Position numbers and translations under genes: made by a program. This document shows positions 3,162 through 55,525 of a DNA stretch of 64,000 nucleotides, one piece after another. Positions within the stretch are counted from its first letter, which is position 1, and the number at the start of each line of letters is the position of its first letter. This DNA comes from Candidatus Heimdallarchaeum aukensis (GTDB lineage Archaea; Asgardarchaeota; Heimdallarchaeia; Heimdallarchaeales; Heimdallarchaeaceae), in NCBI GenBank assembly GCA_021513695.1, contig CP084166.1, forward strand, positions 224,001-288,000, given 5' to 3'. Under the pieces are notes generated by a model. That model saw only the letters and a program-made list of their open reading frames with translations, was not told the origin of the DNA and made no database searches.

Positions 3162-4112
3162 TTACTTTGTTAGAAACTCAAGTTTCTCGATATTAATAAA
3201 ACCAAAACTCACTAGATTTGAAAATAAAGAGAGAAAATAGGGGAAAGAAATAATTAATTCTTCATTCTTAAAAATCTCATAAATATCGTAAATCGTATGA
3301 TTAATATTTCCACAGCATTCTTTTAGCATTTTTATGAAAAGTTTGTAAACTTTAACTGGTGTCATCGGGAAAATCTCATCAAAATTTTTTTCGAATATAT
3401 CAATATTTGTTTTGTAACTGTGTGGAATAGCGATTCTAGATTGTAATAACAAATCCAACTCTAGCAATGAAATATCATCAGGGGGATTTTCAATAATTCT
3501 ATCAATGTAAGCAGGGATAAAAGCTAGTGAAAAATTGTCTAAATAAACAAGCTGTTCTATTAAATCGTTAATTTTCTTAATCCACAGTTGAGCTATTTTA
3601 GTATTTAGTGATGAATTGATGCAGATCTTAGTTTCTATGAAGTTGAGAATAGAGTATTCAACAATTTCATTGCACTGTTTATCAGTATTATTGGAATTCT
3701 CTTCAAGATAGTATATTTCTTCTCTTAATTTGTCTATTATCTTAAGAGAGTATAGGTTTACTCCTCCGTAATCAATCGTTGGGGTTAATATTTGCTGATT
3801 ATATTTTGAAATTGATGGTATTGGAATCCCGAATTCTACATCTTGTTCTCCTATTATTGAAGGTGTTTTATCAATATCCGTACGCAAAAGAACATGAGAT
3901 CTAACTGAATTGTTAGTGTCTATAAAGAGTTTTGTAGCTCTTAATGAGCTATCTCCACACTCATGTACATCTACAAGTTCAAAGATATCTTTACCTTCGT
4001 TCAAAAAAGGTAAAATCGTCTTTGGAATGAAAATTATTCTTTGTTTTTGACATGCTGTACATAAATACTCTATTGAAACTCGAGATTCAGCTCTTATTGT
4101 CAATTTCTTCAA
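3162..4112 (-). CDS. hypothetical CxxC..HxC protein, paralog family A
   Basis: N-terminus reads IEYLCTACQKQRI..DVHECG. It is a full-length paralog of 16127..16990, sharing IEYxCxxCxKQRI, DVHxC, G[IL]P[IL]PS and a C-terminal LxNLVxxGxINI. It is divergent from the GTPase gene. Confidence 0.6.
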   Translation of the reverse strand: MKKLTIRAESRVSIEYLCTACQKQRIIFIPKTILPFLNEGKDIFELVDVHECGDSSLRATKLFIDTNNSVRSHVLLRTDIDKTPSIIGEQDVEFGIPIPSISKYNQQILTPTIDYGGVNLYSLKIIDKLREEIYYLEENSNNTDKQCNEIVEYSILNFIETKICINSSLNTKIAQLWIKKINDLIEQLVYLDNFSLAFIPAYIDRIIENPPDDISLLELDLLLQSRIAIPHSYKTNIDIFEKNFDEIFPMTPVKVYKLFIKMLKECCGNINHTIYDIYEIFKNEELIISFPYFLSLFSNLVSFGFINIEKLEFLTK

Positions 4113-4507
4113 TAAAAAGTATACTTAATTATTTATATATTTATACATACGGTTTTTCTTTCTACTCGATGTGAAGAGAAATACTTGTTGTATGTAATTT
4201 ACAGAAAATGAGAACTTAAGTTTCAATGAACATATGACCATTTTCTAGCCAAAAAAGACCTGAAAGAAAGTCAGTGTTTTGAAAATAAAAAGATAAAAAT
4301 TTATTTGAAAACAATTTTATTAAATAGAACCTTTGTCAAACAGTTTCAAAGTAAATAGAAGAATGTTTAGTATAGTTTTCTTTTTTAGTTTAAAAGATTT
4401 AAAAAGGGAGTTTATAGTTTAAGAAAAAAACATTTATTCTTTTAATTGAATATTGTTAGAGTAGATAAGTTTTAATAGAATAAAGGTGAATTATATTAAG
4501 TAAACCA

Positions 4508-5092
4508 GTGGTACAAATGAACTCATTGAATCAAAACATCTTTAAAATCGTACTCCTTGGAGAAGGAGCTGTAGGAAAAACCTCTTTAAAACGAACTTAT
4601 ATGGGTGAAGAATTCGTAGAAGGATATAAAATGACAGTAGGTGCTGATTTCGCAGTCAAGAAACTGGAGGTAGATTTCTACAAAATAACTTTGCAGATAT
4701 GGGATCTAGCAGGGCAACCTAGGTTTGATGCGGTAAGAGAGGCATACTATAGAGGAGCTAAAGGAGCTTTACTAGTTTTTGATATCTCTAGACCAGAAAC
4801 ATACGAAATACTACCTAAATGGCTAAATGAGTTAATAAAAAACAGTGGTGGACGAAAGGTACCAATAATTCTAATTGGAAATAAATCTGACTTGCGCGAA
4901 AAACATGATCAAACTGTTCCAATTAACTATGCTGAAGATTATGCTGAAAAGCTAACAATGTGGTCTGGATATCACGTGTCTTACGTTGAAACAAGTGCAA
5001 AAACGGGAGAAAATGTAGAAAAAGCCTTTAGTGAATTAGCTCTTCAACTTGTACGTAATTTAGAAAAATTAAAAGTTGAACTAGGGATATAA
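4508..5092 (+). CDS. Rab-like small GTPase (Ras superfamily)
   Basis: G1 GEGAVGKTS, switch I TVGADF, G3 WDLAGQPRF, YYRGAKGALLVFDIS, G4 GNKSDL and G5 ETSAKTGENVEKAF. There is no C-terminal Cys. The ATG at 4517 is an alternative to the GTG at 4508. Confidence 0.9.
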   Translation: MVQMNSLNQNIFKIVLLGEGAVGKTSLKRTYMGEEFVEGYKMTVGADFAVKKLEVDFYKITLQIWDLAGQPRFDAVREAYYRGAKGALLVFDISRPETYEILPKWLNELIKNSGGRKVPIILIGNKSDLREKHDQTVPINYAEDYAEKLTMWSGYHVSYVETSAKTGENVEKAFSELALQLVRNLEKLKVELGI

Positions 5093-5096
5093 AAAA

Positions 5097-5867
5097 TTAC
5101 TTTCTAAAATATGGTATTTTTACATAAGGTAATTTAATAATAAATTTGTCTTTTGAATAAACAATTATTCCACCAAGTCCTTTAACACAATGTTCGATAA
5201 AATCTTGTTCTATTGACTTTACTTTTTCTCTTTTACCTAAAGTTTCAACCAATTTAAACTTATCATAAAGATTAATTTTAAATACAAAATCCAGCATGTT
5301 CTGCTCATTACTGTATATAATTATAATCTCTGAATTTTTTTGTTGTTGCAATAAGGATTGAAACATAAGATATTCAAATAGGATATCGAGATTTTCATCT
5401 TTAACTATACATAAATCAGCAGAACCTTCAGGAAAAATAATGTCTGGAGATTGTTTAGTATAATGAGTGAGAAGATAGTGAGAAGTTAATTCTTTTATGA
5501 ACTCATGCAAGTTAACAAATGTCTTTTTGTACAATCTTCTAGATAATAACGTTATCAACTGTCTAGTAAATTTAATTTTAAAAATACTCTCTTCTAAAAG
5601 TAGAAGTGATTCATTATTCTCAAAACTTCCTTCTTTCATTGCTGATAAAATACTTAAATTATATACTGTATGGAGAAGATTTCCCATGTCATGGGTTAAA
5701 ATTTCAACTATTTTTGTTGTTCTTTGGTTTTCAGTCTCTATTTCTCGAGTCTTAATTTTTAGATTTTTACTTAACTGATAATTCCAAAGAAATAGAGATA
5801 TGATTAATATAAGTACTAAAGCGAATATAGAGACTACAGCGATTAGAAAAATTGCATAGCTATTCAA
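5097..5867 (-). CDS. membrane-anchored histidine-kinase-like protein with a weak/degenerate ATPase half
   Basis: One N-terminal TM helix and the H-box-like motif ILTHDMGNLLHTV. The C-terminal half lacks clear N/G1 boxes and has only the G2-like KGLGGIIVYSKDKFIIKLPY. Confidence 0.5.
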   Translation of the reverse strand: MNSYAIFLIAVVSIFALVLILIISLFLWNYQLSKNLKIKTREIETENQRTTKIVEILTHDMGNLLHTVYNLSILSAMKEGSFENNESLLLLEESIFKIKFTRQLITLLSRRLYKKTFVNLHEFIKELTSHYLLTHYTKQSPDIIFPEGSADLCIVKDENLDILFEYLMFQSLLQQQKNSEIIIIYSNEQNMLDFVFKINLYDKFKLVETLGKREKVKSIEQDFIEHCVKGLGGIIVYSKDKFIIKLPYVKIPYFRK

Positions 5868-8885: not shown

Positions 8886-10922
8886 TTACTCAAAATAAAC
8901 TTCTTTGATCTTTGTATCAATATATTCTTTTATTTCTTCATATTCCAATATATCTTCATGAGGATACTCTAATAGCTTTTTTTCAATCAAGACGGCTATT
9001 TCTTCAGTCTTTTTCTTTAGTGCATACGAAAAACGGTCTACGAATAAAGCAATTGTAAATTCACTTTTTCCTAATAAAAGCATTATATATTCAGAGTGTT
9101 CCAAAATTCTTAGCTCTCCTTTCTTTAGTTTTAGAGTTTTGCTTATATTTTTTATAGCATTAATCATTCCAACAATAAGCAACTCATCAGAATGGAAAAT
9201 ATCTCCATAAGAGTAACTATAGAAAGGAACATTTTCAACAATTAATAAGAAATGAAAAAGATGGAAGTTATTTCTACTGCTTCTAATCTCTGAAGTGAGT
9301 AATCCCTTTGTAGTGTATTGTTTTATTAGATTATCTATTTCTAAAGAAAAATCCATAGAAAAGGGAGTTTGTTCGAATTCTGAGTTTGCTTTTGCCTTCT
9401 TTAGTAGTTGATAGATTTGTCTAATATTCTCTTCTTTATAATTTAAATTATGCTTTTTACATATTATTTCCACTCTTTTTAGCAAATCTTCTGAAAGGTG
9501 AAGTTTGTTTGTATATATGTAAACTGTTGCTAATAGCAACATATAATTTACTAATTGATAAAAGGCATTAAGTTCTTTCAATAGAATAATTATTTCTTGA
9601 GAATATAACTCGATTTCCTCTAATATTTTTTGCTTATTAATTTTATTAGTCTCGATTTTAAACATTACAAGATATAATTCAATCAAGTAAAGAAGAGCAT
9701 TTAATGCTTGGGGAAAAAGGTTCAATTCTCTGGCATAATTTATTCCTTTTAGTAAATAATCTCTGGATGAATAGTAATTCATTTTATAAAATTCAAAAAT
9801 GCCTTTAGTTGTAATATAGGTAGTATAATAAGCGTTAAGTTTAGGCTCATCTAATTTAAATGTCTTTGAATATTTTTCTAAATACAATCCTGCTTTATCA
9901 AAATTGTTAGATATAGCGTATGTCTCTGCTGCTAAAGGATAAATATAATCAAGAGCAATATTGTATTGTTCACTAATTTTAATAGCCTGTTCTAGAAATT
10001 TAAGGGATTCAGGAATGTTATTTAACAGTCTGTAAGCATAGATTATTTCTGCATTTATCATGGCTATATTTCTTAATTCTTTCTTTTTTTCCATAAAAAT
10101 AAGAATGTTAAATAAGTGTTTTAAACCCTCTTTGAAAAATCCTTGTTTGAGCAAAACTACTGCATAATTTGCTTTAGCAACTATTTTTCCTCTTTCAATT
10201 TTTTCAGAACTGAATAATTTAATTGCCTCTGCATAGGCAACCTTACTTTCTATTATTGATCCAGAATAAAGAAGGCAATTTCCTTGCATATTTAGTAAAT
10301 ATGCGTGCAAGTAAACATCTGAAATATCATGTTTTAGGATTTTTTGTAATGCTTTCTCTGAAATGTAAATTCCTTTAATATATTGATGTTTCATGTAGTT
10401 GAACAAGGTTTCTGTATAAAGATACATTATTTCGTAAAATCTACAAAGTTTTTTATCTTTTTCAAATTCACTAACTTGGTCCAATATCTCTAATGCTTTA
10501 TTCAAATATTCTTCTGCTTGCTCAAGTTCGTTTATAACAGAATAGTATTCTACTACATGAAGAAAAAAATCAAAAAGATAGATAATTTGAGTATTGATTT
10601 TACCTTTATCCAGTTTTTCTATTATTTCTTCGATTTTTGGATAATCTCCTTGTATTGCTACAATACGCGAAAAAGAAGCAAAAATTTCAAAAGATTTAAA
10701 CTTCAGATAAAACTCTGATAATTTTTCTCTATCATCATAAATTAATAGAATTTTAGCAATTAAAGCTTGATAATCTGAAGGAACTGAAGAAGATAGAATT
10801 TCATCCCAATACTTTAGGATTGTATTGTAGAAATCAAAATAAGTGTTAAACAACTTTGGATGCATTTTTCCATGTAAGAAATCTTCTTCTAAAAACCTCT
10901 CATATCGCTTTATTTGCATCAT
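8886..10922 (-). CDS. TPR-like repeat protein with C-terminal longin/roadblock-like domain
   Basis: 678 aa with helical repeats. The C-terminal ~100 aa read FLLIVENVPFYSYSYG..ELLIVGMINAIKNISKTL..LRILEHSEYIMLLLGKSEFTIALFVD. It is a tandem paralog of 11047..13095. Confidence 0.6.
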   Translation of the reverse strand: MMQIKRYERFLEEDFLHGKMHPKLFNTYFDFYNTILKYWDEILSSSVPSDYQALIAKILLIYDDREKLSEFYLKFKSFEIFASFSRIVAIQGDYPKIEEIIEKLDKGKINTQIIYLFDFFLHVVEYYSVINELEQAEEYLNKALEILDQVSEFEKDKKLCRFYEIMYLYTETLFNYMKHQYIKGIYISEKALQKILKHDISDVYLHAYLLNMQGNCLLYSGSIIESKVAYAEAIKLFSSEKIERGKIVAKANYAVVLLKQGFFKEGLKHLFNILIFMEKKKELRNIAMINAEIIYAYRLLNNIPESLKFLEQAIKISEQYNIALDYIYPLAAETYAISNNFDKAGLYLEKYSKTFKLDEPKLNAYYTTYITTKGIFEFYKMNYYSSRDYLLKGINYARELNLFPQALNALLYLIELYLVMFKIETNKINKQKILEEIELYSQEIIILLKELNAFYQLVNYMLLLATVYIYTNKLHLSEDLLKRVEIICKKHNLNYKEENIRQIYQLLKKAKANSEFEQTPFSMDFSLEIDNLIKQYTTKGLLTSEIRSSRNNFHLFHFLLIVENVPFYSYSYGDIFHSDELLIVGMINAIKNISKTLKLKKGELRILEHSEYIMLLLGKSEFTIALFVDRFSYALKKKTEEIAVLIEKKLLEYPHEDILEYEEIKEYIDTKIKEVYFE

Positions 10923-11046
10923 TTTATTTCATTATTACTTTATCATAGTATATCTCAAGAGTCGTTAAAAGTTTATCTGATTTTCAAAAATTGATTGATT
11001 CTCGGCGACTCAAAAATAATAAAATAGCTAGAGTTCAAAAGAATAA

Positions 11047-13095
11047 CTACTTTTCAAATATTTCAATTCTTAAATTATCTATTTCTTGTTTTATAGGAGT
11101 TAAAATCTTATTGGTAAAATAGTCAATCTGCAAAACTTCTGTTTGTTGCAATAAACTCTCAATTTTGTTAGCAAATTGAATCAAACGTTCTTTTACAGAA
11201 TAATAGAACTCATCAATGAAGAGAACAACTGAATATTTCTTTCGTTTTTCAATCATTACTATAAAATCAGTAAACTCGATAAGCTTAAAGATTCCATGTT
11301 TTTTTGTCAGAGAGTCACTGAACGATTCAATAGCTTTGAATAATCCAGATAGAAGAAGTTGTTTTTCTTCAATTTTTTCTCCTTTAAATTGATGTGAATA
11401 TAATGGTAAACCGTTAAAGTGAATAATTATTAGATTTATTAGGTGATCTTTGTTATATAAATTGAGGTTTACTTCTATGTTCCTAATTTCTGTAGAAGGT
11501 TTCTGTAATGTTTTTGTTATACTATTCAAACTGAATATTTGAAGAGCTTTATCATCTAACTTTTCAGGATTCTGTTCCATTTTTTTCAGTGTTTGCATTT
11601 CACGTAAAATTTCTTTAAGTTGAGTATTCATATTGTAGTTTTTACATAACTCTACAGTTAAAGAGTAAATATGGTTCGCAAGATCGAATTTCTCCTGAAG
11701 TGCATAAATCCTAGCTAAAAGTAATTGAAAATCTATTTTTAAGTAAATGTTGCTGTGTTTTCGTAATATTAGGGATATCTCTTCGCAAATTTCCTCTAAT
11801 TCACTTATAATTTCTTCAGAATACTGTATTTGTAATTTCTTAATCAAGTAAATTGAATGATATTTCAGTCCAGTTAGATAAAGGGGAAAATTTTTGATAC
11901 TTTTAGCTATTTCTATTCCTTTTTCCAGGAAAATAGATGCATTGTATAAATTTCCTCTTATTAATTCGTAATATCCCTTTAAAGAATAAAATGCACCATT
12001 ATGGAAACTGATGTTTTCTTTATCTTTTAAGATAATATTTTCAAATGTTTTCAAAAGTTTTTCAACAATATCAAATTTTTGAATTTGTATTGCGAACTCG
12101 ATTGATGATATTAATACTTCGTCGTCATAGACTAATCTTGTTTCTAAGAGTTTTATATTTTCTTTAAGATATTCTACTGCTTTTTCTGTTTTACCAATTT
12201 CTATTAGGCATTGCATAATCTCTCTATTTATTAAAGCTACATTTCTCAACTCATTGTTTTCAGAGAAAAATTCTTTGATTTTTATTAACTTAGGTAGAGC
12301 TTCTTTATGTTTTCCGAGTTTGATATCTAAAGAAGCTATATTTCCTTCTGTTACAATTTTTCCTCGATTATTATTCATTTCATTAAACAAATTAAATGAT
12401 TTATAGTAATTTGACTTCGATTGTTTAAGCAACCCTTTAAACATGTAAGCGTTACCTAGAGTGTTGTAAGTAACTGCTAAAAGAAATTCATCTGTTTTTT
12501 CAATATTTTCTAATATTTTTTTGGCTTCACTAAAGTAAAAAATAGCTTTATCTGACTCTCGATATCTAAAAACAGTGAAACCCAGAGTATAGAATAAATT
12601 TGCTTGAAGAAAAAGAAACAATTGACCTTCACTCTTATTTAAGAGAAGTTTGCATTGTGAAATTAGCTGAGAAGCTAATTCATTATTGAAAGTTGTAGCA
12701 AATATTTTTATTTCAGAGTTGTAGAAGTAAAATCTAGGAAAAATTGAAGATTTAGAAATAGATGCTAGATCAGTTTCTGCAATATATGTTTGTGCTTTAA
12801 TTAATCCTCTTTTTAATCGTAATATGTTGAGTAAAGGGCCTAAAGTTTCGATTGAATTATATTTTTTATAAAGAAATTCTAATTTATCATATTCTCCATA
12901 CATATTAAACAAATAACTAATTAAAAATTGAACATCAGGGGGTATGAAAATGTCTCTTATCTTTTTCCAATAATTTTGAACATTTCTGTAAAGATTAAAC
13001 TCTTTCACTTCTGTTATAGTTTTTAACTTTAGATATTTTTTTATCCAATTTTGATCATCAGAGTTTAATAACTGTAAATACCAATCCAAAACCAT
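11047..13095 (-). CDS. TPR-like repeat protein with C-terminal longin/roadblock-like domain (tandem paralog)
   Basis: 682 aa. It shares the blocks RGKIV, ELRN[IV]A[ML]IN and the C-terminal LIIIHFNGLPLYSHQF..LLLSGLFKAIESFSDSL..FKLIEFTDFIVMIEKRKKYSVVLFID with 8886..10922. Confidence 0.6.
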   Translation of the reverse strand: MVLDWYLQLLNSDDQNWIKKYLKLKTITEVKEFNLYRNVQNYWKKIRDIFIPPDVQFLISYLFNMYGEYDKLEFLYKKYNSIETLGPLLNILRLKRGLIKAQTYIAETDLASISKSSIFPRFYFYNSEIKIFATTFNNELASQLISQCKLLLNKSEGQLFLFLQANLFYTLGFTVFRYRESDKAIFYFSEAKKILENIEKTDEFLLAVTYNTLGNAYMFKGLLKQSKSNYYKSFNLFNEMNNNRGKIVTEGNIASLDIKLGKHKEALPKLIKIKEFFSENNELRNVALINREIMQCLIEIGKTEKAVEYLKENIKLLETRLVYDDEVLISSIEFAIQIQKFDIVEKLLKTFENIILKDKENISFHNGAFYSLKGYYELIRGNLYNASIFLEKGIEIAKSIKNFPLYLTGLKYHSIYLIKKLQIQYSEEIISELEEICEEISLILRKHSNIYLKIDFQLLLARIYALQEKFDLANHIYSLTVELCKNYNMNTQLKEILREMQTLKKMEQNPEKLDDKALQIFSLNSITKTLQKPSTEIRNIEVNLNLYNKDHLINLIIIHFNGLPLYSHQFKGEKIEEKQLLLSGLFKAIESFSDSLTKKHGIFKLIEFTDFIVMIEKRKKYSVVLFIDEFYYSVKERLIQFANKIESLLQQTEVLQIDYFTNKILTPIKQEIDNLRIEIFEK

Positions 13096-13104
13096 ATTTT
13101 TCCC

Positions 13105-13800
13105 CTAAGTATATCTATCTTTAGGTCTCCTTTCTGGTATCATTTCAATTTCTTGATTTTTTGTGAAATCATAATCTTTCTTAAAGAATAGAGCACAATA
13201 GCATCTTCCATATTCATTGATATCTTCTTCTGCATAATCACAAGGACAACAAATATCTCTATCAAGCTGAATATTTTCGTTTGTATCTCGACAAGGACAA
13301 TTAAAATAACCTATTCTATTATAATTATCTTTTAGTCCTTGTATTAACATGTCTAAAGTTCCATCGTTATTTGGATGTAACTTCCAATTCTTCTTTTTAG
13401 CTATATTCTGAACATATTTCTTTACTTCTTCAAAAGTTTTTGACTTTTTACTTCTTCCAATACCATGAAAGAGTTTCTCCCATTTCTTTTTGTTAAATCC
13501 CATTTCATATTTTTCTCCGTCAATAACTACGAATGGAAAAGCTATAAACTCCAAATTAAAAGCATGTCTTATTTCTTTTTTGATCTCTTTTTTTTCATTA
13601 TAGTTTATTAGATCTATATCGATAAAATAGTAAGAAATTTTATTATCTTTTAGCCAATTTTTACTTTTTTTACACCATTGACATGTAGAGATAGCAAAGA
13701 GAAAAACTTCAAAATCAGTTGTTGAATCTTCAAATAGCTCTAAATTATAGTTTGGCAAACTCTTAATTTTTTTTGCTATCTTTAAGTTTAGTTTCTCCAT
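13105..13800 (-). CDS. glutaredoxin-like / ferredoxin-thioredoxin-reductase catalytic-subunit-like fusion protein
   Basis: The N-terminal Grx/Trx-like part has CQWC and FPFVVIDG. The C-terminal part reads CPCR-x15-CCPC-x14-CYCALFF, matching the FTR catalytic-chain CPC..CPC..CHC pattern with H replaced by Y. Confidence 0.7.
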   Translation of the reverse strand: MEKLNLKIAKKIKSLPNYNLELFEDSTTDFEVFLFAISTCQWCKKSKNWLKDNKISYYFIDIDLINYNEKKEIKKEIRHAFNLEFIAFPFVVIDGEKYEMGFNKKKWEKLFHGIGRSKKSKTFEEVKKYVQNIAKKKNWKLHPNNDGTLDMLIQGLKDNYNRIGYFNCPCRDTNENIQLDRDICCPCDYAEEDINEYGRCYCALFFKKDYDFTKNQEIEMIPERRPKDRYT

Positions 13801-13875
13801 AGTATCACTTATTCGTCAATATTATACTAACTGTGTTGATTAATAATAAATGTTCTTCTACTATCAATCCAATAA

Positions 13876-14427
13876 TTATAAAGTATTTAAAAAGGCTATT
13901 TCATTGAAATTCTTTCTTGGAGGTCTATTTTTTTCAGAGTTTGCATCCTTTTCTGATAATACTTCAGTATAATTCTCATTATGTCTTCCCACTATAATTA
14001 ATGTAATAATTCTGTATTCTTGGGGAATATTCAATACATTTTTAGCTTCTTCTTCGTTAAACCCAGCTATTGGATGGGCAACAAGTCCCATTTCTGTTAA
14101 ACGTAGGATAATATTTGCTGTTGCCATTCCTGTATCAAAAAGATAGTATTCTCTTCCTTTAACTATACAATCTAAATCTGGTTTAGAGAAAACAGCAATT
14201 ACCATTGAAGCTTTTTTCGCCCAAGCATTTGCTTCAGATAAAGTAGAAAAGATTTTTTCCAGATTTTCTTTCCCGTAAACAAAGACAAATCTCCAAGGTT
14301 GTTTGTTAAAACAAGAAGGAGCTAAACTTGCTAATTCAACCAATTCCTTTATCATTTCTTCTTTTACTTCAAAGGGAAGTAATGATCTGTATGCTCTCCT
14401 TTTATTAACTATTTCATAAAAATTCAT
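13876..14427 (-). CDS. nitroreductase family protein
   Basis: RRAYRSL..APSCFNKQPWRFVFV is a typical nitroreductase N-terminus. 183 aa. It abuts bcp with no gap. Confidence 0.8.
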   Translation of the reverse strand: MNFYEIVNKRRAYRSLLPFEVKEEMIKELVELASLAPSCFNKQPWRFVFVYGKENLEKIFSTLSEANAWAKKASMVIAVFSKPDLDCIVKGREYYLFDTGMATANIILRLTEMGLVAHPIAGFNEEEAKNVLNIPQEYRIITLIIVGRHNENYTEVLSEKDANSEKNRPPRKNFNEIAFLNTL

Positions 14428-14904
14428 TTAATCACCTTTTATATTTAAAATTGTAGACAAAACATCCATAGAATGCTCTTTAACTTTTACTTTTTCCCAT
14501 ATCTTAGCAACTTTTCCTTCAGGAGAAATAAGGAAGGTCTTTCTAGCTGTACCAAAAAACTTCTTCGGTCCCATTTTCTTCTTAACCCAACAACCATAAG
14601 CTTCAATTATTTCATGGTTTTCATCGCTTAGTAAAATTACTTTTAGATCCTTTTTCTCTTCAAATTTCTTAAGTTTACTAATTGGGTCATTACTTATCCC
14701 AAAAATTATGGCATCTCTTTTCTTGAATTCTTCAATTTGTTCAGAGAATGTTTTTGCTTCAATTGTACATCCTGGAGTATTTGCTCTGGGGTAAAAATAA
14801 ACTACAACCCATTTTCCTAAATAGTCTTTTAGACAATGTTCTTTCCCATTTTGGTCCTTTAGACAAAAATCAATGGCTTTATCACCAACTTTTAAATTTG
14901 ACAT
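14428..14904 (-). CDS. bcp: peroxiredoxin, Bcp type
   Basis: The motif YFYPRANTPGCTIEA carries the peroxidatic Cys. 158 aa. Confidence 0.9.
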   Translation of the reverse strand: MSNLKVGDKAIDFCLKDQNGKEHCLKDYLGKWVVVYFYPRANTPGCTIEAKTFSEQIEEFKKRDAIIFGISNDPISKLKKFEEKKDLKVILLSDENHEIIEAYGCWVKKKMGPKKFFGTARKTFLISPEGKVAKIWEKVKVKEHSMDVLSTILNIKGD

Positions 14905-18259: not shown

Positions 18260-18730
18260 TTACTCTCCAAGAATTTTTGTTTTAAGATTAGCCATTTCAA
18301 TTGCTGAAAGAGCAGCATCTACTCCTTTATTTCCCATTTTTGTTCCTGCTCGCTCTATTGCTTGTTCTAGTGTATCAGTTGTTAATATTCCGTAACTTAT
18401 TGGTACATCTAGGTTCAATGATGCTTTAGCAACTCCTTTTGATACTTCACTGGCTACGTAATCAAAATGTGGCGTTGCACCTCTAATAACTGCCCCCAGA
18501 GCTATTATTGCATCATATTTTTTCTTTTCGCCCATTATTTTGAGAGTATAAGGTATTTCAAAAGCTCCTGGAGTCCATACTACATCTATATCTTCATTCT
18601 CGACTTCATGTCGTATTAATGTATCTATGGCTCCTTTTAGCAATTTACTTGTAATTAGTTCATTAAACCTACTTACAACTATTCCGATCTTTAAATTTTT
18701 TCCTGTTTGTTTTCCTTCAAAAATTTTCAT
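18260..18730 (-). CDS. ribH: 6,7-dimethyl-8-ribityllumazine synthase
   Basis: 156 aa with a typical RibH sequence ([23 protein letters not shown]). Confidence 0.95.
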
Positions 18731-18741
18731 TTATACTCCTC

Positions 18742-19944
18742 TCAATTATCGATAATATTCAACAAATGACCCAATTTCTCTTGTTTCGCTTTTAAGTAAG
18801 CATAATTTTGTATATTAGGATCCATTCTCAAAGGTATTCTCTGTGCTATTTTTATGTTGTATTTCTCAAGTTTTTTTATTTTATCAGGATTGTTTGTTAA
18901 TATTCTGATCTCGTTTATTCCTAAATCTTTCAAAATATCCGCAGCTATCTTATAATCTCGCAAATCTGCAGGAAAACCTAATTTTAGATTTGCATCGAAA
19001 GTATCATATCCACACTCTTGAAGTTTGTAAGCTTTCAATTTATTTAATAAACCAATTCCTCTTCCTTCTTGTCTTAAATAGAGTAGTACTCCCGTTCCTT
19101 CCTCTGCTATCATTTCCATAGATTTCTCAAGTTGCGAACCACAATCACATTTTAATGATTTTAAAACATCACCTGTAAGACATTCAGAATGTAATCGGAT
19201 CAATATTGACTGATTTTCTTTTATTTCTCCTTTAATTAAAGCAATATGTTCTAATCCATTATACTTGTCGCTATAACCTATAATCTTGAATGTTCCAAAT
19301 TTTGTAGGTATATTTGTTTCTACTACACGTTCAACAAAGCTCTCATTTTTTAATCTATATTCAATCAATGAAGATATTGTTATAATTTTCAATCCATATC
19401 TTTGAGCAAAAGAGAGTAACTCTGGAACTCTTGCCATGTGTCCATCATCTTTTATTATTTCGCAAATAACAGCTGCGGGAAAAGCATTACAGATTTTTGC
19501 TAAATCAACAGATGCTTCTGTATGTCCCTCTCTTTTTAGAACTCCTCCTTCTACAGCAATTAAAGGAAAAATGTGTCCGGGTCGTCTGAAATCTTCTGCT
19601 TTTTTAGTACGGTCTGTAATGTCACGAACAGTTTTTGCACGTTCATAAGCAGAAATTCCTGTAGTACAATCAATACTGTCAATCGATACCGTAAAAGCAG
19701 TTTGGTTGGGATCATTATTCTTTGTAACCATAAGAGACAAGTTTAACTCTCTTGCTCTTTCAGAAGTAATGGGCACACAGACCAACCCTCGAGCAAAACG
19801 GATCATAAAATTAATTGTATCTGGTGTGATTCTATCGGCTAAAGCTACAAGATCTCCCTCATTCTCTCTCTCTTCATTATCAATTACAATGATACATTTT
19901 CCTTCTTTTAAATCTTTTATGGCTTCTTCTATTGAATTAAACAT
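18742..19944 (-). CDS. ribBA: bifunctional 3,4-dihydroxy-2-butanone-4-phosphate synthase / GTP cyclohydrolase II
   Basis: 400 aa. The N-terminal half is DHBPS-like ([13 protein letters not shown]). The C-terminal half is GCH II-like ([20 protein letters not shown]). Confidence 0.95.
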
Positions 19945-19954
19945 TTAACCACTC

Positions 19955-20611
19955 CTAAAAACTATGTTCAAACAAAAATTCTTTTGAAAGAATGATTGAT
20001 TGCCTTTTCTCCTCATTGAACTTTTGCAGCAAATGTTCAACATATTTTGATAATATGTCGCACTCGATATTAACTACAGAACCTATCGAATATTTTCTCA
20101 TGATAGTATTTTCCAAAGTATGAGGAATAATAGAGACAGTAAAGCTACTAGAATTTTTATAGACACCGACAACAGTCAAACTTACACCATCAATAGCAAT
20201 CGAACCCTTTGGAACAATATAATTTAGAAGAAATGAACGAGTTTTTATTCTAAAAATTATTGAATTTTGTTTTGTTTCTTTCTTAACTATTTCTCCCATG
20301 GCATCAACATGCCCTTGTACAAAGTGGCCGTTTAATCGATCTTGTAACTTCAAAGCTCTCTCAAGATTAACAAATGAACCTCTCTGAAGAAATTTTAGAT
20401 TTGTTCGTTCTAATGTTTCTGGCATCATATCAGCTGTAAAGGCTGTACTAGTAAAACCAGTAACTGTTAAACATACTCCATTAACAGAAATACTTTCTCC
20501 AATACGTATATCTTGTAAAACTGTTCTAGCCTTTATCTCAATTTTACACTGGCTTCTTGACCTATTTAGATGATTAACTAAACCTATTTCTTCAATAATT
20601 CCTGTAAACAT
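19955..20611 (-). CDS. ribE: riboflavin synthase alpha chain (bacterial/eukaryotic type)
   Basis: MFTGIIEEIG start, duplicated lumazine-binding halves, 218 aa. Confidence 0.9.
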   Translation of the reverse strand: MFTGIIEEIGLVNHLNRSRSQCKIEIKARTVLQDIRIGESISVNGVCLTVTGFTSTAFTADMMPETLERTNLKFLQRGSFVNLERALKLQDRLNGHFVQGHVDAMGEIVKKETKQNSIIFRIKTRSFLLNYIVPKGSIAIDGVSLTVVGVYKNSSSFTVSIIPHTLENTIMRKYSIGSVVNIECDILSKYVEHLLQKFNEEKRQSIILSKEFLFEHSF

Positions 20612-26365: not shown

Positions 26366-26482
26366 ACTTATCACTTATATTTCTATTATTATGTATGTTC
26401 TTGGAAATTTTTAAGATTAATTATTGATTTGTTGTTAGTGTTAAAACAAAAAAGAAATAAAAAGATAGTTTGTGCTCTTACA

Positions 26483-27424
26483 ATGACCTCTCTACGCGAA
26501 ATTATCAAACCAAACAAAAAGTTCAATCTAATCAATTTAGATGAAAAAAAAACTGTAGAATTTTGGATTATTTGCTTAGTTGTTGTTATAGATTTGATTT
26601 TTTCAGTTATCATAAATTTGGTTATTTATCGCTTTGGAATATTTAATTGGATTTACGATATAACAGGTTTTGTAACGCCAACAATGCTTGCTTATACAAT
26701 ATTATATTTAGTTATTATAGGTTTATTAATAATTTATTTAGGAAAGCTAAAACCTAAAGATTTAGGATTTTCAACTAGCAAACTTTGGCAAGGTGTTTTA
26801 ATTGTGTTTGTTGGTTGGTTCATTATTCAAATTGCAGGTGTAATTTATTCACTAATTATAAGTGGGACATTAACAATTGATAGTTATATGGTTCAATCTT
26901 CTGCAAAGTTAATAATTATAAAAAACGTTGTTCAATGGTTTTTTAATGCACCATTTGAAGAATTTTTATTTAGAGAATTTTTACTTACACAACTATATTT
27001 ACAGTTCAAAAATAGATTAATTGATGATCCTAAATCGGTTAAGAAGTCTCTAACTCGTTCTTTGATAATATCACAACTAATATTCTCGTTTATGCATATT
27101 CCAAATCGTATTCTATGGGTAGTGAGTTCAGAAAGTTATACTGTAAAAGAAATAATCTGGGCAGCGGTTAATCCTCTTCAATACGGAGTTTTGTTCCTAA
27201 TAGGATTAACATTTGCCATGTTGTATCACAGGACTGATAATATTTTCATTGTTATAGGAATACATGCACTTTTTAATGAACCTAACTCTTTGTTCTTTCC
27301 TAAATGGATAGGTTCAATCTTAATTTATGTTCTTGCAATAATTATAATCCTTTTCTATCCGTTTTTCTTGAGTAAATACTCTAAAGAAAAAGAAATAATT
27401 ATTGAAAAAGATAAAATCCCTTAA
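26483..27424 (+). CDS. CPBP family intramembrane glutamic endopeptidase (CAAX protease/Abi family)
   Basis: FEEFLFREFL (EExxxR), FSFMHIPN (FxxxH) and IHALFNE (HxxxN). The ATG at 26483 is preferred over the track's TTG at 26429. Confidence 0.8.
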   Translation: MTSLREIIKPNKKFNLINLDEKKTVEFWIICLVVVIDLIFSVIINLVIYRFGIFNWIYDITGFVTPTMLAYTILYLVIIGLLIIYLGKLKPKDLGFSTSKLWQGVLIVFVGWFIIQIAGVIYSLIISGTLTIDSYMVQSSAKLIIIKNVVQWFFNAPFEEFLFREFLLTQLYLQFKNRLIDDPKSVKKSLTRSLIISQLIFSFMHIPNRILWVVSSESYTVKEIIWAAVNPLQYGVLFLIGLTFAMLYHRTDNIFIVIGIHALFNEPNSLFFPKWIGSILIYVLAIIIILFYPFFLSKYSKEKEIIIEKDKIP

Positions 27425-28415: not shown

Positions 28416-29279
28416 ATGATTTTTCTGATCTCTCTTAAAAAAATTCAAAAAAAAAATAAATATCAAGAAGAAGAAAAAAGAACCATGAGCGAAGAAAAAT
28501 CAAAAGTTAAGTCATTCTTTAATCCAATTTCTTTTGTAGTTATTTTGCTAATTTGGAATTGGTTAGGTGGTTATCTACTTGATCTTTTTTCAGTTCCGTC
28601 TCAATGGATAGGGACTTATTATCTAGCAGGAACACTTATTTGGAGTTTAGTTTTTGCTAGAGTAGTCAATAAGAAACTAGAAAATATTGGTGTTACAGTT
28701 AAAGTCAAATTTGATTTAAAGTCTTTATTACTAATTATTTTAGCTGCTTTAATAGGTTCAGTATATTTGCTTTTGTCTGCGATCTACAAGTATTCTTTAC
28801 CTTTGGTTGAAATAAACACAGAAATCATAGTCACACTTATTGTTTTACCTATCTCAATTCTAATACAAGCTTTTTTTGAAGAGATAGCTTGGGCAGGATG
28901 GCTTTATTCAAACTTGAAAATGAGAGAAGAAGTAAAGAACTTGATTATAGGTTTGGTATGGGCTGTCTGGCATGTTCCTTTCTATCTATGGGGAATCAAA
29001 TATTTCACATATACACCCTTGTTATACTCTCTTAATGTCATAGGGATAATCTTATCACGTTTTGTTATTAACTGGTTCAGAAAAGAAATGGACAATGTAT
29101 GGTGGCCAACTTTCTATCATGGAGGAATAAATTTAGGTGGATTTATAATCATAGTATTGTATCCTGGTATCGAAAAAATAGCTGAAGTTATAGTATATTC
29201 AGGGTTAATACGAACAGTTATAATCTTGATTTTACAGATTGTAATAACTTTTATTGGAAAGAAAAGAGAAAAAGTTTAA
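28416..29279 (+). CDS. CPBP family intramembrane protease (second copy)
   Basis: FFEEIAWAGW, VWAVWHVPF and FYHGGINL. The protein is polytopic. The ATG at 28485 is an alternative start. Confidence 0.7.
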   Translation: MIFLISLKKIQKKNKYQEEEKRTMSEEKSKVKSFFNPISFVVILLIWNWLGGYLLDLFSVPSQWIGTYYLAGTLIWSLVFARVVNKKLENIGVTVKVKFDLKSLLLIILAALIGSVYLLLSAIYKYSLPLVEINTEIIVTLIVLPISILIQAFFEEIAWAGWLYSNLKMREEVKNLIIGLVWAVWHVPFYLWGIKYFTYTPLLYSLNVIGIILSRFVINWFRKEMDNVWWPTFYHGGINLGGFIIIVLYPGIEKIAEVIVYSGLIRTVIILILQIVITFIGKKREKV

Positions 29280-33759: not shown

Positions 33760-34050
33760 TACGTAAAGTTTTTCACACTCTGTCTTGCAAGAGAGAAAAC
33801 TAAAGGAAGTTTAATCTCTTGAACTCAACCAAGCCATACAATGCCATGAAGGGGTTGAGACAGACATCATACACGAATCGTGGGAATCATAAAGAAGAAA
33901 AGAACTAAAAACTCTTTTCTTCACTCCACGAGAGACAAAAAAGAAAGAATTACTCCTATAATAGAGAAGGAGTTAAGTTCTTTTTTGTCTACTGGGGCTG
34001 CAACCAATGGCTGAGCCCTCGGCAAACAGTGAAATGGGAAGAACTGAACC
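33760..34050 (-). ncRNA. candidate omega (re)RNA of the TnpB element
   Basis: It sits where omega RNAs are expected, overlapping the tnpB 3' end and the ~240-nt ORF-free tail. A perfect 10-bp hairpin spans 33894-33922 (gaagaaaaga/tcttttcttc). A 7-bp hairpin spans 33824-33859 (ctcaacc/ggttgag). The palindromes tcttgcaaga and tttacgtaaa lie near the distal end. Confidence 0.4.
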
Positions 34051-35443
34051 TTTGACCAGTGAGGTAATCAGTGATAGTTGTTCCTCGAGGACGAAAAAGA
34101 GCACCAAGGAACTTACGAGCGATATTCATTGCTCCTGTGAGGTCAGAGTGGAAAGTGTAATTGCAAGAGGGGCAATGGACTAAACCTCTAACAGGACGGA
34201 CAACTTTCCTTCCACAACGAGTACAGTGAGAGGATGTCCCTCTTTCCTCTACGGTTAATATTCGATGAGGGTCAAAACCTCTTAATATCAATGCTCGACG
34301 GAGAAGAGTAAGAACTAGAGAAAAGTTCCACTGATGAAGTTTCCTGCGAAACTTACGCGCACTGTTCCCTTTTCCTTTATCTTTTCTCACATTTTTGGGG
34401 TAACCTACGACGACGAAAAGGTCATACCTTCGAGCATAGGTCTCTATCGTCTGCACAACCTCACTTATAAATTGGTGAATATAGGACAGTTTAACGTTTC
34501 TATATCTTCTTCGGAGAAGACTAAGAAAACGATAAACTTGGTGTTTTTTACCCGACTGGTCGTTTAAAGCTGCTTTCCTCTGAAGACGGGAAAGTTTGAG
34601 TTTATATCTATGATTGATTTTATTCCATTGTTTGGTATACCAGAATTTTATTTCTTCACTTGTTAATTTCTTTTTAGGGGTTAGTAACACTCCTGCAGCA
34701 GGAATGTTTATCCCTAGATCTATTCCCAGCACAGCTGGAGGAAGAGAAGAAGAACTTTTTTTTTTAGGAGGATAAAAAGAAGGAGGAGGAAGAACTCTTA
34801 GTTGGAAATACACCCACCACTCATGTGTAGAACGTTTATATCTTAGTTCTAAACTTTTTATTCGTCCTTTCTTTAATTCCTTCTGGTGGAAAGTGCTCAT
34901 CTCTAAAGGCAACCATAACTTCTGATGATATGGGGTATTTCTTTTCCACGTATCTAACGAGTCTCTTATCCCCACCCACCAACGAGCGAGAGTGTTATTC
35001 TTCTCTTTAGGTAAATGGACGAGAACGAACCTCTTTGCATTAATTAGTTGTCTTCTTGCTCTCTTTATTGGAGGACGAGTATTATTAGGTCTATACCCTT
35101 GTTCATATAATTGTACGGCTATATCTCTACACTCTTGAAATTCATTGTGGGAACAATAAGGGAACATTTTCTTCAGATCGTGAGGGACATTCTTTCTTCT
35201 CTCTTCTTCTTTAACTTTTGAAGTAGTTAGCGTCAACTCATCTAGTTTTCCTCTATGCACTCTTATTTTCCCTTTTTTAGTTTTAGTACATATTTTTCTT
35301 CTGTTGTGGTGTATAATTCTCACATACTTTTCTATTATCCTCGTATCTCTTCCCGTTATTCTCCTTAACCTTTCCTTCTTCCTCGTCGTCAATACCTCCT
35401 TCTTTATTCTCACTTTCAAGGTTTTGACGACGTCCTTCACCAT
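33989..35443 (-). CDS. tnpB: TnpB-like RNA-guided nuclease (IS605 OrfB family)
   Basis: RuvC-I LGIDLGINIPAAG, zinc finger CTRCGRKV..CPSCNYTFH and RuvC-III HSDLTGAMNIARKF. 484 aa with a K/R-rich N-terminus. The RuvC-II position reads VVVGYPKNV rather than the expected xxxEDL. Confidence 0.85.
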   Translation of the reverse strand: MVKDVVKTLKVRIKKEVLTTRKKERLRRITGRDTRIIEKYVRIIHHNRRKICTKTKKGKIRVHRGKLDELTLTTSKVKEEERRKNVPHDLKKMFPYCSHNEFQECRDIAVQLYEQGYRPNNTRPPIKRARRQLINAKRFVLVHLPKEKNNTLARWWVGIRDSLDTWKRNTPYHQKLWLPLEMSTFHQKELKKGRIKSLELRYKRSTHEWWVYFQLRVLPPPSFYPPKKKSSSSLPPAVLGIDLGINIPAAGVLLTPKKKLTSEEIKFWYTKQWNKINHRYKLKLSRLQRKAALNDQSGKKHQVYRFLSLLRRRYRNVKLSYIHQFISEVVQTIETYARRYDLFVVVGYPKNVRKDKGKGNSARKFRRKLHQWNFSLVLTLLRRALILRGFDPHRILTVEERGTSSHCTRCGRKVVRPVRGLVHCPSCNYTFHSDLTGAMNIARKFLGALFRPRGTTITDYLTGQRFSSSHFTVCRGLSHWLQPQ

Positions 35444-36857: not shown

Positions 36858-37595
36858 TTGAGTAAAATGATATTAAGTCAAGTTGAAAACATCTTACAAT
36901 ATGAGCAACCAGATGAAATTTCTCCTGCTTTACCAAGAAATCATTATATTTTTATTGAAAAACTTATCAAATTCCTATCAAATTCAATCAACTATCCTTC
37001 ATTGTGTGAAACAAGAAGAGTTTTTTTCTCAAATCTTCTAGTAATTACTGCATTAAATAACGAAAGTAAGTATTTAACAAAGAATTTTCTTACCTCTGCT
37101 TTTTTAGCTTTATTACGTAATGTTTCAGGGCATATAGACGCTAAATCTCTCCAAGATTTGATAAACCAAATTTCAGGTACATTTATAGGAGTATCAAAAG
37201 GAAAGGCTTTTTCGTTATCAAGCGTAAATAAAATAACAAATGAATTAATAAATCTAGGTATAATCAAAAAGTCAACTGTAGATTTTTTTACTTATGTTGA
37301 AAAAGAGGCATTAAAGTTGGCAAAAAAAACTTGTTCTCATTTTGAAGAAATTAGAAATATGTCAAAAAGTGTTTCGATAAAGATCTCAAGTTTAGTAAAG
37401 AAAAGAATTGTTCCAAGGATGAAAGTTAAACAATCATCAACAGTCTTAGTTCTATCTATCTTATTTAATTATTTACCAAGAAAAGGATATTATAGAGATA
37501 ATGTGTTCAAATTTGTTAGTGAAAAACAAAAAGTGGATTTTCAATTATTAAAGAAAAGAGTGTATAGATTTAGATCAAAATTTAATATTTCGTAG
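36858..37595 (+). CDS. TFB/TFIIB-core-like (double cyclin-fold) protein without Zn ribbon, tentative
   Basis: It is a paralog of 44359..45690. Paired blocks are KNFLTSAFLALLRN / NYFTSNLVAMYFLALLDH, FSLSSVNKITNELINLGIIKK / FSFYNIKKIQNDLYSRGILKRK, and KKRVYRFRSKF / KSVYRFRSRL (compare TFB IRNRYKEL). Confidence 0.35.
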   Translation: MSKMILSQVENILQYEQPDEISPALPRNHYIFIEKLIKFLSNSINYPSLCETRRVFFSNLLVITALNNESKYLTKNFLTSAFLALLRNVSGHIDAKSLQDLINQISGTFIGVSKGKAFSLSSVNKITNELINLGIIKKSTVDFFTYVEKEALKLAKKTCSHFEEIRNMSKSVSIKISSLVKKRIVPRMKVKQSSTVLVLSILFNYLPRKGYYRDNVFKFVSEKQKVDFQLLKKRVYRFRSKFNIS

Positions 37596-54273: not shown

Positions 54274-54909
54274 ATGATTGAAATAGTTTTTTTGAATTTC
54301 TTGAATCTCTTTGTTAAAATATGGCTATCAGCTCTTTTAATTAATATTCTACTTTCCACTCTCTTAAAACCAATTTATAAACATCTGTTGGCAATAGGCT
54401 TGGTTTTCAATTTACCAATTAAGCGACTATTTTATTGGATCTATAGAGTACCCATTGAGAATATAGATTGGGAAAACGGTCTAATTAGAACAAAGAAAGT
54501 GAATAATATGGATTGTCTAGCAACTACAGTTGTGATCATGCCTGTATTTATTTTAAGCTACTTATCTAGTTGGTTATTCTATTTTGCAGGTAAAATCTAT
54601 CCCTATGGTTACAAGTTCTTTGGAATTGTTCTTTATATTGTCGCTTCGTTAAGTCTAGCTTTCAGTATTCCTAACTTTGAGGAATTGAAATTGTTTAATA
54701 ACATTAATCTTCATTCCTCTTTGGTCTATTTACTAAAATGGGTATTTGTAGTTATAGTTGTCTTTTCAATAGTTGAGTTTACTTCTATCTCTCTTGATGT
54801 ATTAACTACAGTGATATTAGTTCTTTTAGCTACTCCATTTTATAGTTATAAAGAAGATGAAGAAAATGTAGAGAATATTAAGAAAATTATTGGTGATCCA
54901 TTTGCATAA
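54274..54909 (+). CDS. polytopic membrane protein (paralog of 45683..46423)
   Basis: 211 aa. LAFSIPNFEELKLF pairs with FAFFSIPDVQDLMLPF in 45683..46423. Confidence 0.5.
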   Translation: MIEIVFLNFLNLFVKIWLSALLINILLSTLLKPIYKHLLAIGLVFNLPIKRLFYWIYRVPIENIDWENGLIRTKKVNNMDCLATTVVIMPVFILSYLSSWLFYFAGKIYPYGYKFFGIVLYIVASLSLAFSIPNFEELKLFNNINLHSSLVYLLKWVFVVIVVFSIVEFTSISLDVLTTVILVLLATPFYSYKEDEENVENIKKIIGDPFA

Positions 54910-55525
54910 ATGGACTCTTTCCAAAAATGAGCGAATGATACATCTTTATGGTCCCCCAGCAAGTGGTAAGACTACTTTAGCAATTCAATTATCTAGAAAA
55001 GTCTTTCCTCGCTCAACAATTTATTTCATTACTTCGCATAGAAACGCAATTACAAAAAGAGCAAAACAGATACTAAACAAGAATTATCTTAAAGAATTTT
55101 ATTTAATTAAAGTTTCTAGTTTAGATGATTTATTTGAAAAAATTCAATCTATTAATAGCTTAGGAAAAACAATAGGATTGATTGTAATAGATTATATCTC
55201 TGATTTTGTTAGAGGGAAGCTATACAAGGAAGAAGTAAAAAACAAGGTAAGGAAGATATTAGAAAAACTTTTTATTTTCTCCTCACAAAAAGATTGTTTA
55301 GTTGTGATAGTCAATAGTTTTTCAATAAAAAATGAAGCTCCTTTGAATTCTTTAGTTGAAAGTTTTTGTGACATGTCAGTTTATTTGTCGATTAAAGATG
55401 ACAAATACAATTTGGAATCAAATGGTAAAAATATAAAAAGAACTTTTGTAGTCGATGAAAAAATTATTTCCAGCTTCGTTATTGATGAAAAAGGAATTAA
55501 AGATTTAATTATTGTGTCTGAATAA
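54890..55525 (+). CDS. RadB/KaiC-like RecA-superfamily P-loop ATPase
   Basis: Walker A HLYGPPASGKTTLAIQLS, Walker B GLIVIDYISDFVRG, then LVVIVNSFS and a C-terminal FVIDEKGIKDL, giving a RadB-like layout. The start is ambiguous (TTG 54890, GTG 54893 or ATG 54935). Confidence 0.65.
   Translation: MVIHLHKWTLSKNERMIHLYGPPASGKTTLAIQLSRKVFPRSTIYFITSHRNAITKRAKQILNKNYLKEFYLIKVSSLDDLFEKIQSINSLGKTIGLIVIDYISDFVRGKLYKEEVKNKVRKILEKLFIFSSQKDCLVVIVNSFSIKNEAPLNSLVESFCDMSVYLSIKDDKYNLESNGKNIKRTFVVDEKIISSFVIDEKGIKDLIIVSE

Follow-up and report, generated by a model that had tools for sequence, protein, structure and literature searches.

A predicted longin subfamily, divergent in sequence, at the C-termini of tetratricopeptide repeat and membrane proteins of Candidatus Heimdallarchaeum aukensis

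Longin and roadblock domains as a rule pair via their b3 strand and a1 helix and use the resulting top face, formed by two helices, for docking a GTPase; SRX is a monomeric exception to this pairing (Levine, 2013, PMC3747258). In TRAPP, the longin subunits Bet5/TRAPPC1 and Trs23/TRAPPC4 (Sybindin, PF04099) are stand-alone proteins of approximately 140-220 amino acids (aa) working with Bet3-family subunits (TRAPPC3/5/6). The tri-longin Rab guanine nucleotide exchange factors (GEFs), namely Mon1-Ccz1, Fuzzy-Inturned/CPLANE and HPS1-HPS4 (PF19036, PF19031), have three consecutive longins, the first of which is N-terminal. In the Ragulator/LAMTOR-Rag and SR-alpha(SRX)-SR-beta systems a membrane-attached longin or roadblock domain tethers a GTPase without a lipid anchor; the Ragulator subunits have roadblock topology and are anchored by the lipidated LAMTOR1, while SRX is a monomeric N-terminal longin. 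Here we describe a C-terminal module shared by three proteins of Candidatus Heimdallarchaeum aukensis, encoded in a stretch of 64,000 nucleotides (nt) of contig CP084166.1 (positions 224,001 to 288,000), which is referred to as the window. Judged by its predicted structure, the module is a longin domain and represents a sequence-divergent subfamily without prior annotation, so far named only in Asgard archaea.

Longin and roadblock domains are abundant and widely shuffled in Asgard archaea, with 41 longin-like domains in Loki and 130 asCOGs of the superfamily, and they have been reported as fusions to GTPases, to TRAPPC3, to Vps28-C/adaptin appendage and to two-component modules (Klinger, 2016; Liu, 2021, asCOGs; Tran, 2024; PDB 8yqg, a Loki Roadblock-Longin protein). 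Both the longin fold and its expansion in Asgard archaea are already known. What is new is a divergent, unannotated longin subfamily which consistently forms the C-terminal output of scaffold-like or receptor-like proteins, and which may have been catalogued earlier among the asCOGs. Its fusions to tetratricopeptide repeat (TPR) regions, to domains with seven transmembrane (TM) segments and to receptor-like membrane domains were not found in the published accounts of Asgard longin/roadblock proteins, a comparison that left the asCOG supplementary tables aside.

The shared module and its predicted fold

The module is common to two adjacent genes for TPR proteins, here named TPR-A and TPR-B, and to a more distant gene for a 7-TM protein. 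Pairwise identity in the alignment is 25-30%, and all three C-termini carry the same succession of motifs (hhhh..G.P.Y, L..G...AI..F, h..IE and hhhhh.D, where h is a hydrophobic residue). When the window, the G+C content of which is 29%, was scanned with a hidden Markov model (HMM) of the module, only these three of the 230 six-frame stop-to-stop open reading frames (ORFs) of at least 50 aa were matched, and the next best hit had an E-value of 0.09. A previous interpretation made without database searches, referred to below as the sequence-only reading, had claimed that three proteins of the window end in one motif-bearing module. This was confirmed by the alignment and the HMM, although the proposed length of about 100 aa has to be extended to about 130 aa, as two further C-terminal helices are included in the AlphaFold2 (AF2) model. 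The genes and their modules are as follows:

11047..13095, minus strand: TPR-B gene (ORF), 682 aa; N-terminal TPR solenoid of ~545 aa (Pfam TPR_12) followed by the C-terminal longin
11050..11463, minus strand: predicted longin module of TPR-B, residues ~545-682; the sequence used for modelling
8886..10922, minus strand: TPR-A gene (ORF), 678 aa; ancient paralogue of TPR-B, 124 nt downstream of it on the same strand
8889..9272, minus strand: predicted longin module of TPR-A, residues ~551-678 (alignment; hmmsearch 553-676 of the stop-to-stop ORF, E=4.6e-55)
42753..43907, plus strand: 7-TM-longin gene (ORF), 384 aa; 83% orthologue in Ca. Heimdallarchaeum endolithica PR6
43458..43904, plus strand: predicted longin module of the 7-TM protein, residues ~236-384, beginning directly after TM7 (alignment; hmmsearch E=1.8e-55, positions 244-390 of the stop-to-stop ORF, which begins 7 codons upstream of the called start)

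In an exhaustive HMMER search, a profile of the three module sequences retrieved 554 representative proteins (clustered at 50% identity) at E<=1e-3, 20 of them at E<=1e-10, and matches to non-orthologous members reached E=3e-26. The similarity of the modules is therefore due to homology and not to chance. The family is poorly accessible to word-indexed homologue searching, which returned no match for the module alone or for a 60-sequence module alignment, and which with full-length TPR-B found two near-identical orthologues only. One protein of 4799 aa (P0023, E=2e-10) was left out of the family; its nine short matches cover only profile positions 99-130 (a2-a3) and are almost certainly a coiled-coil or low-complexity false positive. 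The clusters that carry an organism name are all Asgard (Heimdallarchaeota/Heimdallarchaeaceae, Ca. Heimdallarchaeum endolithica, Baldrarchaeia, Hermodarchaeota, Odinarchaeota and 'Promethearchaeota'), a restriction which is provisional because most clusters have no such name. In public records the members are called 'hypothetical', 'tetratricopeptide repeat protein' or 'MalT-like TPR region'. Labels of the first two kinds arise because the window proteins stay under the Pfam longin and roadblock thresholds and because no NCBIfam model matches the module in any of the three.

The AF2 model of the TPR-B module, obtained with the 60-sequence alignment (A2), has a pLDDT of 89.1 and a pTM of 0.84. 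Its elements (strands b1 8-15, b2 20-25, b3 61-63, b4 68-73 and b5 77-83; helices a1 35-52, a2 88-106 and a3 118-137) follow each other in the order b1-b2-a1-b3-b4-b5-a2-a3, which is the longin order, and form a sheet of five strands that has a single helix above it and a pair of helices beneath. Structurally, the model comes closest to TRAPP Bet5/Trs23, Mon1/Ccz1, HPS4, Fuzzy and the AP sigma subunits. Longins are aligned over 119-129 of the 138 residues of the module, and roadblock/MglB proteins over 80-105. Comparison of the A2 profile with PDB sequences ranked the candidates similarly (Bet5 E=0.003, Trs23 0.014, MON1A 0.09, dynein roadblock 0.16), and in a Pfam scan of 60 members taken singly Fuz_longin_1 was matched by 22 (best 9e-7), Robl_LC7 by 14, Sybindin by 10 and Intu_longin_1 by nine. 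The L-x-x-G-x-x-x-A motif of a1 aligns with LLYGMIFSL of Bet5 and TMGVMVAL of MON1, so that its G-x-x-x-A spacing corresponds to G-x-x-x-S in the former and to G-x-x-x-A in the latter.

The sequence-only reading had left the choice between longin, TRAPP and roadblock (MglB) folds open. This fold assignment was right and can now be narrowed, since the predicted structure and its structural matches argue for a longin. The roadblock/LC7 identity (MglB, LAMTOR, DYNLRB) was rejected, since b1 has no preceding helix and two helices come after b5, in contrast to the circularly permuted roadblock order a1-b1-b2-a2-b3-b4-b5, in which b5 is followed by one helix at most. A SNARE-like longin was ruled out as well, the longin being C-terminal with nothing after it and Pfam finding no SNARE domain. 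Compared with the stand-alone TRAPP subunits, the longin is here the C-terminal domain of proteins of 380-680 aa, the identity is only about 13% and the window proteins are under the Sybindin threshold. Pfam annotation, which covered the scanned ORFs of the window and the neighbourhoods at 10 other family loci, showed no Bet3/TRAPPC3 or other TRAPP-domain gene, and membership in TRAPP was not accepted. Neither was membership among the tri-longin GEFs, as there is one module per protein, located C-terminally behind TPR or TM domains.

Conservation within the module is highest on a1, where L37, G40 and A44 are conserved at 92-95% and I45 at 68%. It is also high at G18/P20/Y22 of the b1-b2 hairpin and at I62 of b3, and it is lowest on the bottom-face helices a2 and a3.

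Scaffold and membrane proteins that carry the module

Among the best 150 of the 554 representatives the module lies no more than 30 aa from the C-terminus in 142, and in 132 it is preceded by more than 100 aa. Two architectures dominate this set: soluble proteins of approximately 610-715 aa with the module at the C-terminus, and proteins of approximately 350-420 aa in which five to seven predicted TM segments precede the module. Iterated profile searches with the N-terminal parts recovered 45 representatives for the TPR region, at which point the search converged, and at least 34 for the 7-TM membrane domain, a number still growing. Both the TPR-longin and the 7-TM-longin fusion thus represent conserved families rather than isolated occurrences. 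Other fusions include a major facilitator superfamily (MFS) transporter (P0074; MFS_1, 33.8 bits), a leucine-rich repeat (LRR) protein (P0122) and a 12-TM domain from Baldrarchaeia (P0025). In four single-pass proteins (P0066, P0124, P0133 and P0148) a signal or anchor segment is followed by an ectodomain of about 520 aa, immunoglobulin (Ig)-like or MG2 in type, then by a single TM segment and finally by the module, which begins 13-22 residues past the TM segment. One protein (P0138) has a second module ahead of its membrane domain, and some members that seem to be stand-alone modules are partial ORFs at contig ends.

The TPR nature of the soluble proteins is apparent from TPR-B, which matches Pfam TPR_12 with 36.5 bits (cutoff 30.1), while the TPR_12 and TPR_MalT matches of TPR-A are both under the Pfam cutoffs. 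A profile of 10 family sequences (A3) matched the TPR domains of kinesin light chain (KLC; 2.6e-9), LGN/GPSM2 (Pins; 3.7e-7) and RapJ (4e-7), similarities that assign the TPR region to the peptide-binding KLC/LGN type. The sequence-only reading had described about 570 aa of TPR-like repeats in tandem duplicates. The fusion is real, but the N-terminal region has about 545 aa, of which only profile positions ~85-360 are significantly TPR; the remainder is assumed to be helical repeat as well. Likewise, TPR-A and TPR-B are adjacent paralogues, collinear over their full length (663 aligned columns, E=5e-51), yet an identity of only 25% over that length indicates that they are old paralogues and not the product of a recent duplication. 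With a hypothetical protein from a Candidatus Heimdallarchaeaceae metagenome-assembled genome TPR-B shares 99% identity, and the contig is also present in Logan run SRR15988954.

The tandem arrangement is conserved elsewhere. At family locus L005 the two genes stand on one strand in the same order, B then A; the B-type protein is 35% identical to TPR-B and the A-type protein 34% identical to TPR-A, and the two partners are 24% identical to each other. A further adjacent TPR-longin pair, with 34% identity, is present at L006. Tandem TPR pairs aside, two different module-bearing genes were found close together only in L009, a JGI contig of 736 kb, where a gene for a 353-aa module protein (3303-4391, minus strand; E=9.5e-17 to the A2 HMM) is separated by 5.6 kb from a TPR-longin gene (10001-11983, plus strand). 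Membership of the TPR-longin proteins in an anti-phage defence system was considered and rejected, PADLOC giving just a generic TPR match of 18.5 bits.

In the 7-TM-longin protein the membrane domain precedes the module:

42753..43448, plus strand: seven-helix membrane domain, residues ~1-232, predicted from family-averaged hydropathy

That one copy of the module is fused to a polytopic membrane domain had also been recognised before, and this is upheld by seven conserved segments (8-26, 40-56, 70-86, 100-117, 139-150, 168-192 and 213-227) in hydropathy averaged over 22 sequences. In the same sequences the mean number of lysine plus arginine residues in successive loops is 0.4, 3.7, 0.7, 1.6, 0.6, 3.6 and 0.7, and above 1.5 after TM7. 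This alternation indicates an outside location for the N-terminus and an inside one for the C-terminus, with the longin predicted to be cytoplasmic directly after TM7. The membrane domain gave no significant Pfam or PDB match. Homology to G protein-coupled receptors (GPCRs), 7TMR-DISM or SWEET proteins is unsupported, all E-values being at or above 0.03 in round figures: the collinear matches to the class-A GPCRs GPR15 (E=0.028) and PAF receptor (0.033) are weak and not significant, and neither is that of 7TMR-DISM_7TM, matched by one of 29 members (E=0.085).

Immediately downstream of the 7-TM-longin gene lies one of two distant paralogues of no known family (36858-37595 and 44359-45690, both on the plus strand). 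Both are conserved in Ca. H. endolithica, and each matches the orthologue of the other at locus L002, with approximately 26% identity over 175-224 aa (E=8e-10 and 3e-14).

Gene neighbourhoods

A single small GTPase gene of the window lies near the tandem pair:

4508..5092, plus strand: Rab-like small GTPase, 194 aa, no C-terminal Cys (Pfam Ras, 1e-48)

Its top PDB match is a Thorarchaeota Rab (3.2e-40), followed by Rab11, Ypt31/32, Rab7 and Rab1. Having no C-terminal prenylation Cys, it is comparable with the GTPases of the Ragulator and SR systems, which have no lipid anchor. The sequence-only reading was thus right in placing a Rab-like GTPase about 4 kb away, the distance to TPR-A being 3.8 kb. 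The functional link which it had suggested on that ground found no support in the genomic evidence. The genes do not form one operon: they are on opposite strands, with a 256-aa membrane protein, PmbA and TldD (unrelated) between them. For these reasons, and since the flanks of other family loci are not enriched in GTPase genes (see the following section), the proximity is best treated as chance, and it neither supports nor excludes a functional link. This accords with the report of Tran et al. (2024) that the GTPase genes of MK-D1 do not, in general, share an operon with roadblock or longin genes.

The gene for the intervening 256-aa protein (5097-5867, minus strand) converges on that of the GTPase, from which it is separated by 4 nt. 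The protein combines a single N-terminal TM segment with an H-box-like stretch, 'ILTHDMGNLLHTV'; it gave no significant Pfam or NCBIfam match and could be a degenerate histidine-kinase-like sensor.

TPR-A and TPR-B are part of a long run of minus-strand genes, including those for AhpC, nitroreductase, TldD and PmbA, and TPR-B begins 9 nt after a glutaredoxin/FTR-like gene. The latter belongs to a tight redox cluster upstream (13105-14904, minus strand), consisting of AhpC/Redoxin, nitroreductase and a glutaredoxin fused to the catalytic chain of ferredoxin-thioredoxin reductase (FTR), which might share a transcript with TPR-B. L005 lacks this cluster, and the B-type gene is there directly preceded by Asparaginase_2. 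Asparaginase_2 and HlyIII neighbours are common only to the window and the related L005, and the idea of a conserved operon was dropped, as beside family members only the paralogous partner recurs.

At three independent loci, riboflavin-related genes are found 1.6-7 kb from longin-fusion genes. In the window they form a biosynthesis cluster (18260-20611, minus strand) with DMRL synthase, DHBP synthase/GTP cyclohydrolase II and riboflavin synthase, while L006 (1-2974) and L007 (12665-15995) each have a riboflavin-type S component of the ECF class together with ABC and CbiQ genes. As these genes are never adjacent to the longin fusions, their proximity is probably coincidental.

Several other genes of the window deserve mention. 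Two Rce1-like membrane proteins of the CPBP/CAAX-protease family are encoded 1 kb apart (26429-27424 and 28416-29279, both on the plus strand); this family is common in prokaryotes, and the pair is therefore not evidence for prenyl-protein processing. Genes of mobile elements are also present: a 484-aa TnpB/Cas12f-like protein (Cas12f1-like_TNB domain) is encoded at 33989-35443 on the minus strand, and an rve-family integrase with helix-turn-helix (HTH) domains at 37854-38792 on the plus strand. The integrase has no counterpart among the matches to L002 even though the flanking genes are syntenic, which suggests an insertion specific to this genome. The gene at 46426-52791 (plus strand) encodes a giant protein of 2121 aa with many Ig-like (Big_1, Big_3_5), CarboxypepD_reg and alpha-2-macroglobulin-type (MG4, A2M) domains; conservation of this protein in Ca. 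H. endolithica is 80%. Downstream of it lie several ORFs that belong to no known family, the gene for a small AAA/KaiC-like ATPase (54890-55525) and an ORF of 1051 aa without a Pfam match (56114-59269).

Proposed function and its alternatives

By analogy with the systems described above, we propose with moderate confidence that the module is a dimerising longin output, or platform, coupling scaffolds and membrane receptors to small GTPases. In such an arrangement a constant C-terminal longin would be attached to variable N-terminal parts, and the modules would pair side by side through a1 and b3, as other longin/roadblock domains do. TPR-A and TPR-B would form a heterodimer carrying two peptide-binding TPR arms, and the conserved tandem paralogues would fit an obligate heterodimer of the sort known from Bet5-Trs23 and Mon1-Ccz1. 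Indirect support for the side-by-side pairing comes from the conservation peaks on a1, the b1-b2 turn and b3. Membrane forms would either self-pair or take a soluble protein as partner, and would hold the platform at the inner membrane face. The two-helix top face of the module dimer could then dock a small GTPase or another partner, most plausibly a non-lipidated Asgard small GTPase (compare Ragulator-Rag, SR-alpha/SR-beta, TRAPP-Rab1 and Mon1-Ccz1-Rab7), and docking would recruit the GTPase either to a TPR scaffold that binds peptides or to the cytoplasmic side of the membrane, beside a receptor or transporter. For the 7-TM-, MFS- and single-pass-longin proteins the logic would be that of Ragulator and SR-alpha, with the difference that the anchor is here a fused polytopic or single-pass membrane domain and that the GTPase partner is putative. 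Dimerisation, GTPase binding and the direction of regulation, be it as GEF, GTPase-activating protein (GAP), tether or effector, are what we infer from these likenesses.

Several observations weigh against this proposal. Taken singly, the three window proteins are under every Pfam longin/roadblock threshold, and the E-values of the A2 profile against the PDB are borderline (0.003 at best). The TPR-longin gene is single in L008, L009 and L010, and a TPR-longin heterodimer is consequently not universal. In a uniform scan, the flanks of the 10 other family loci, amounting to 176.6 kb, contained one small GTPase gene (in L011, 3.3 kb from the family gene and on the opposite strand), a density no higher than the 1 per 64 kb of the window itself.

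Alternatively, the module could be a dimerisation or assembly domain only, without a GTPase partner, which pairs TPR-A with TPR-B and oligomerises the membrane proteins in the manner of the small alpha/beta domains (PAS, GAF or profilin-like) of prokaryotic signalling proteins. We consider this possible, if rather unlikely. It agrees with the conservation centred on the dimer-interface elements a1 and b3, with the gene neighbourhoods lacking GTPase enrichment, with the fusion of Asgard longins to prokaryotic two-component signalling modules (Liu et al.) and with an architecture of variable input and constant output that is typical of prokaryotic signal transduction. However, known structures use one and the same a1 face for dimerisation and for GTPase docking, and conservation on a1 and b3 therefore cannot separate the two readings. 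Moreover, the nearest structural neighbours of the module are GTPase-binding longins, and the named members all come from Asgard archaea, lineages rich in small GTPases.

In AP, COPI and TSET complexes every one of the large alpha-solenoid subunits carries a small or medium subunit with a longin fold. The tandem TPR-longin pair might accordingly be thought of as an adaptor- or coat-like assembly, in which solenoid and longin are joined in one chain and two chains form a cargo-binding core, an idea that we find improbable. The combination of alpha-solenoid and longin in two conserved side-by-side paralogues is in its favour, as are Asgard proteins with adaptin appendage, Vps28-C, longin and sometimes TPR repeats (Makarova et al.). 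Nevertheless, the TPR region resembles KLC and LGN and not the adaptin HEAT/ARM solenoid, Pfam finds neither an appendage nor a mu-homology domain in the TPR-longin proteins, and the same module is present on 7-TM, MFS and single-pass proteins, which is unlike a coat. Very unlikely, finally, is a roadblock/MglB-type platform with a GAP role towards an MglA-like GTPase, on the model of bacterial polarity systems and of the conservons of Streptomyces (membrane sensor, roadblock and GTPase, a logic that resembles the membrane-longin fusions): the Robl_LC7 matches of 14 of the 60 members and the first PDB sequence match of the module, to dynein LC7b, point in this direction, but the roadblock topology and alignment length are not those of the module, and the sole GTPase nearby resembles Rabs and not MglA.

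In Asgard genomes, Rab-, Arf- and Rag-like GTPases without the lipid anchors that eukaryotes use are numerous. Whether and how these GTPases reach membranes and specific partners matters for models of endomembrane origin. As a longin platform of the kind proposed here, the module could go further than coupling. Receptor-like membrane proteins and TPR scaffolds might share a GEF-type longin output that tethers or activates non-lipidated Asgard Rab/Arf/Rag-like GTPases, and the tandem heterodimer might be a forerunner of the heterodimeric longin Rab GEFs or of adaptor cores. This extended version is doubtful at present; if true, it would amount to a prokaryotic 'receptor-coupled small-GTPase' system. 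As a subfamily of 554 representatives has been invisible to Pfam and NCBIfam, counts of longins among the 'eukaryotic signature' proteins of Asgard archaea are too low, and the fusions to 7-TM, transporter, single-pass and TPR parts provide concrete, clonable candidates for the coupling of GTPases.

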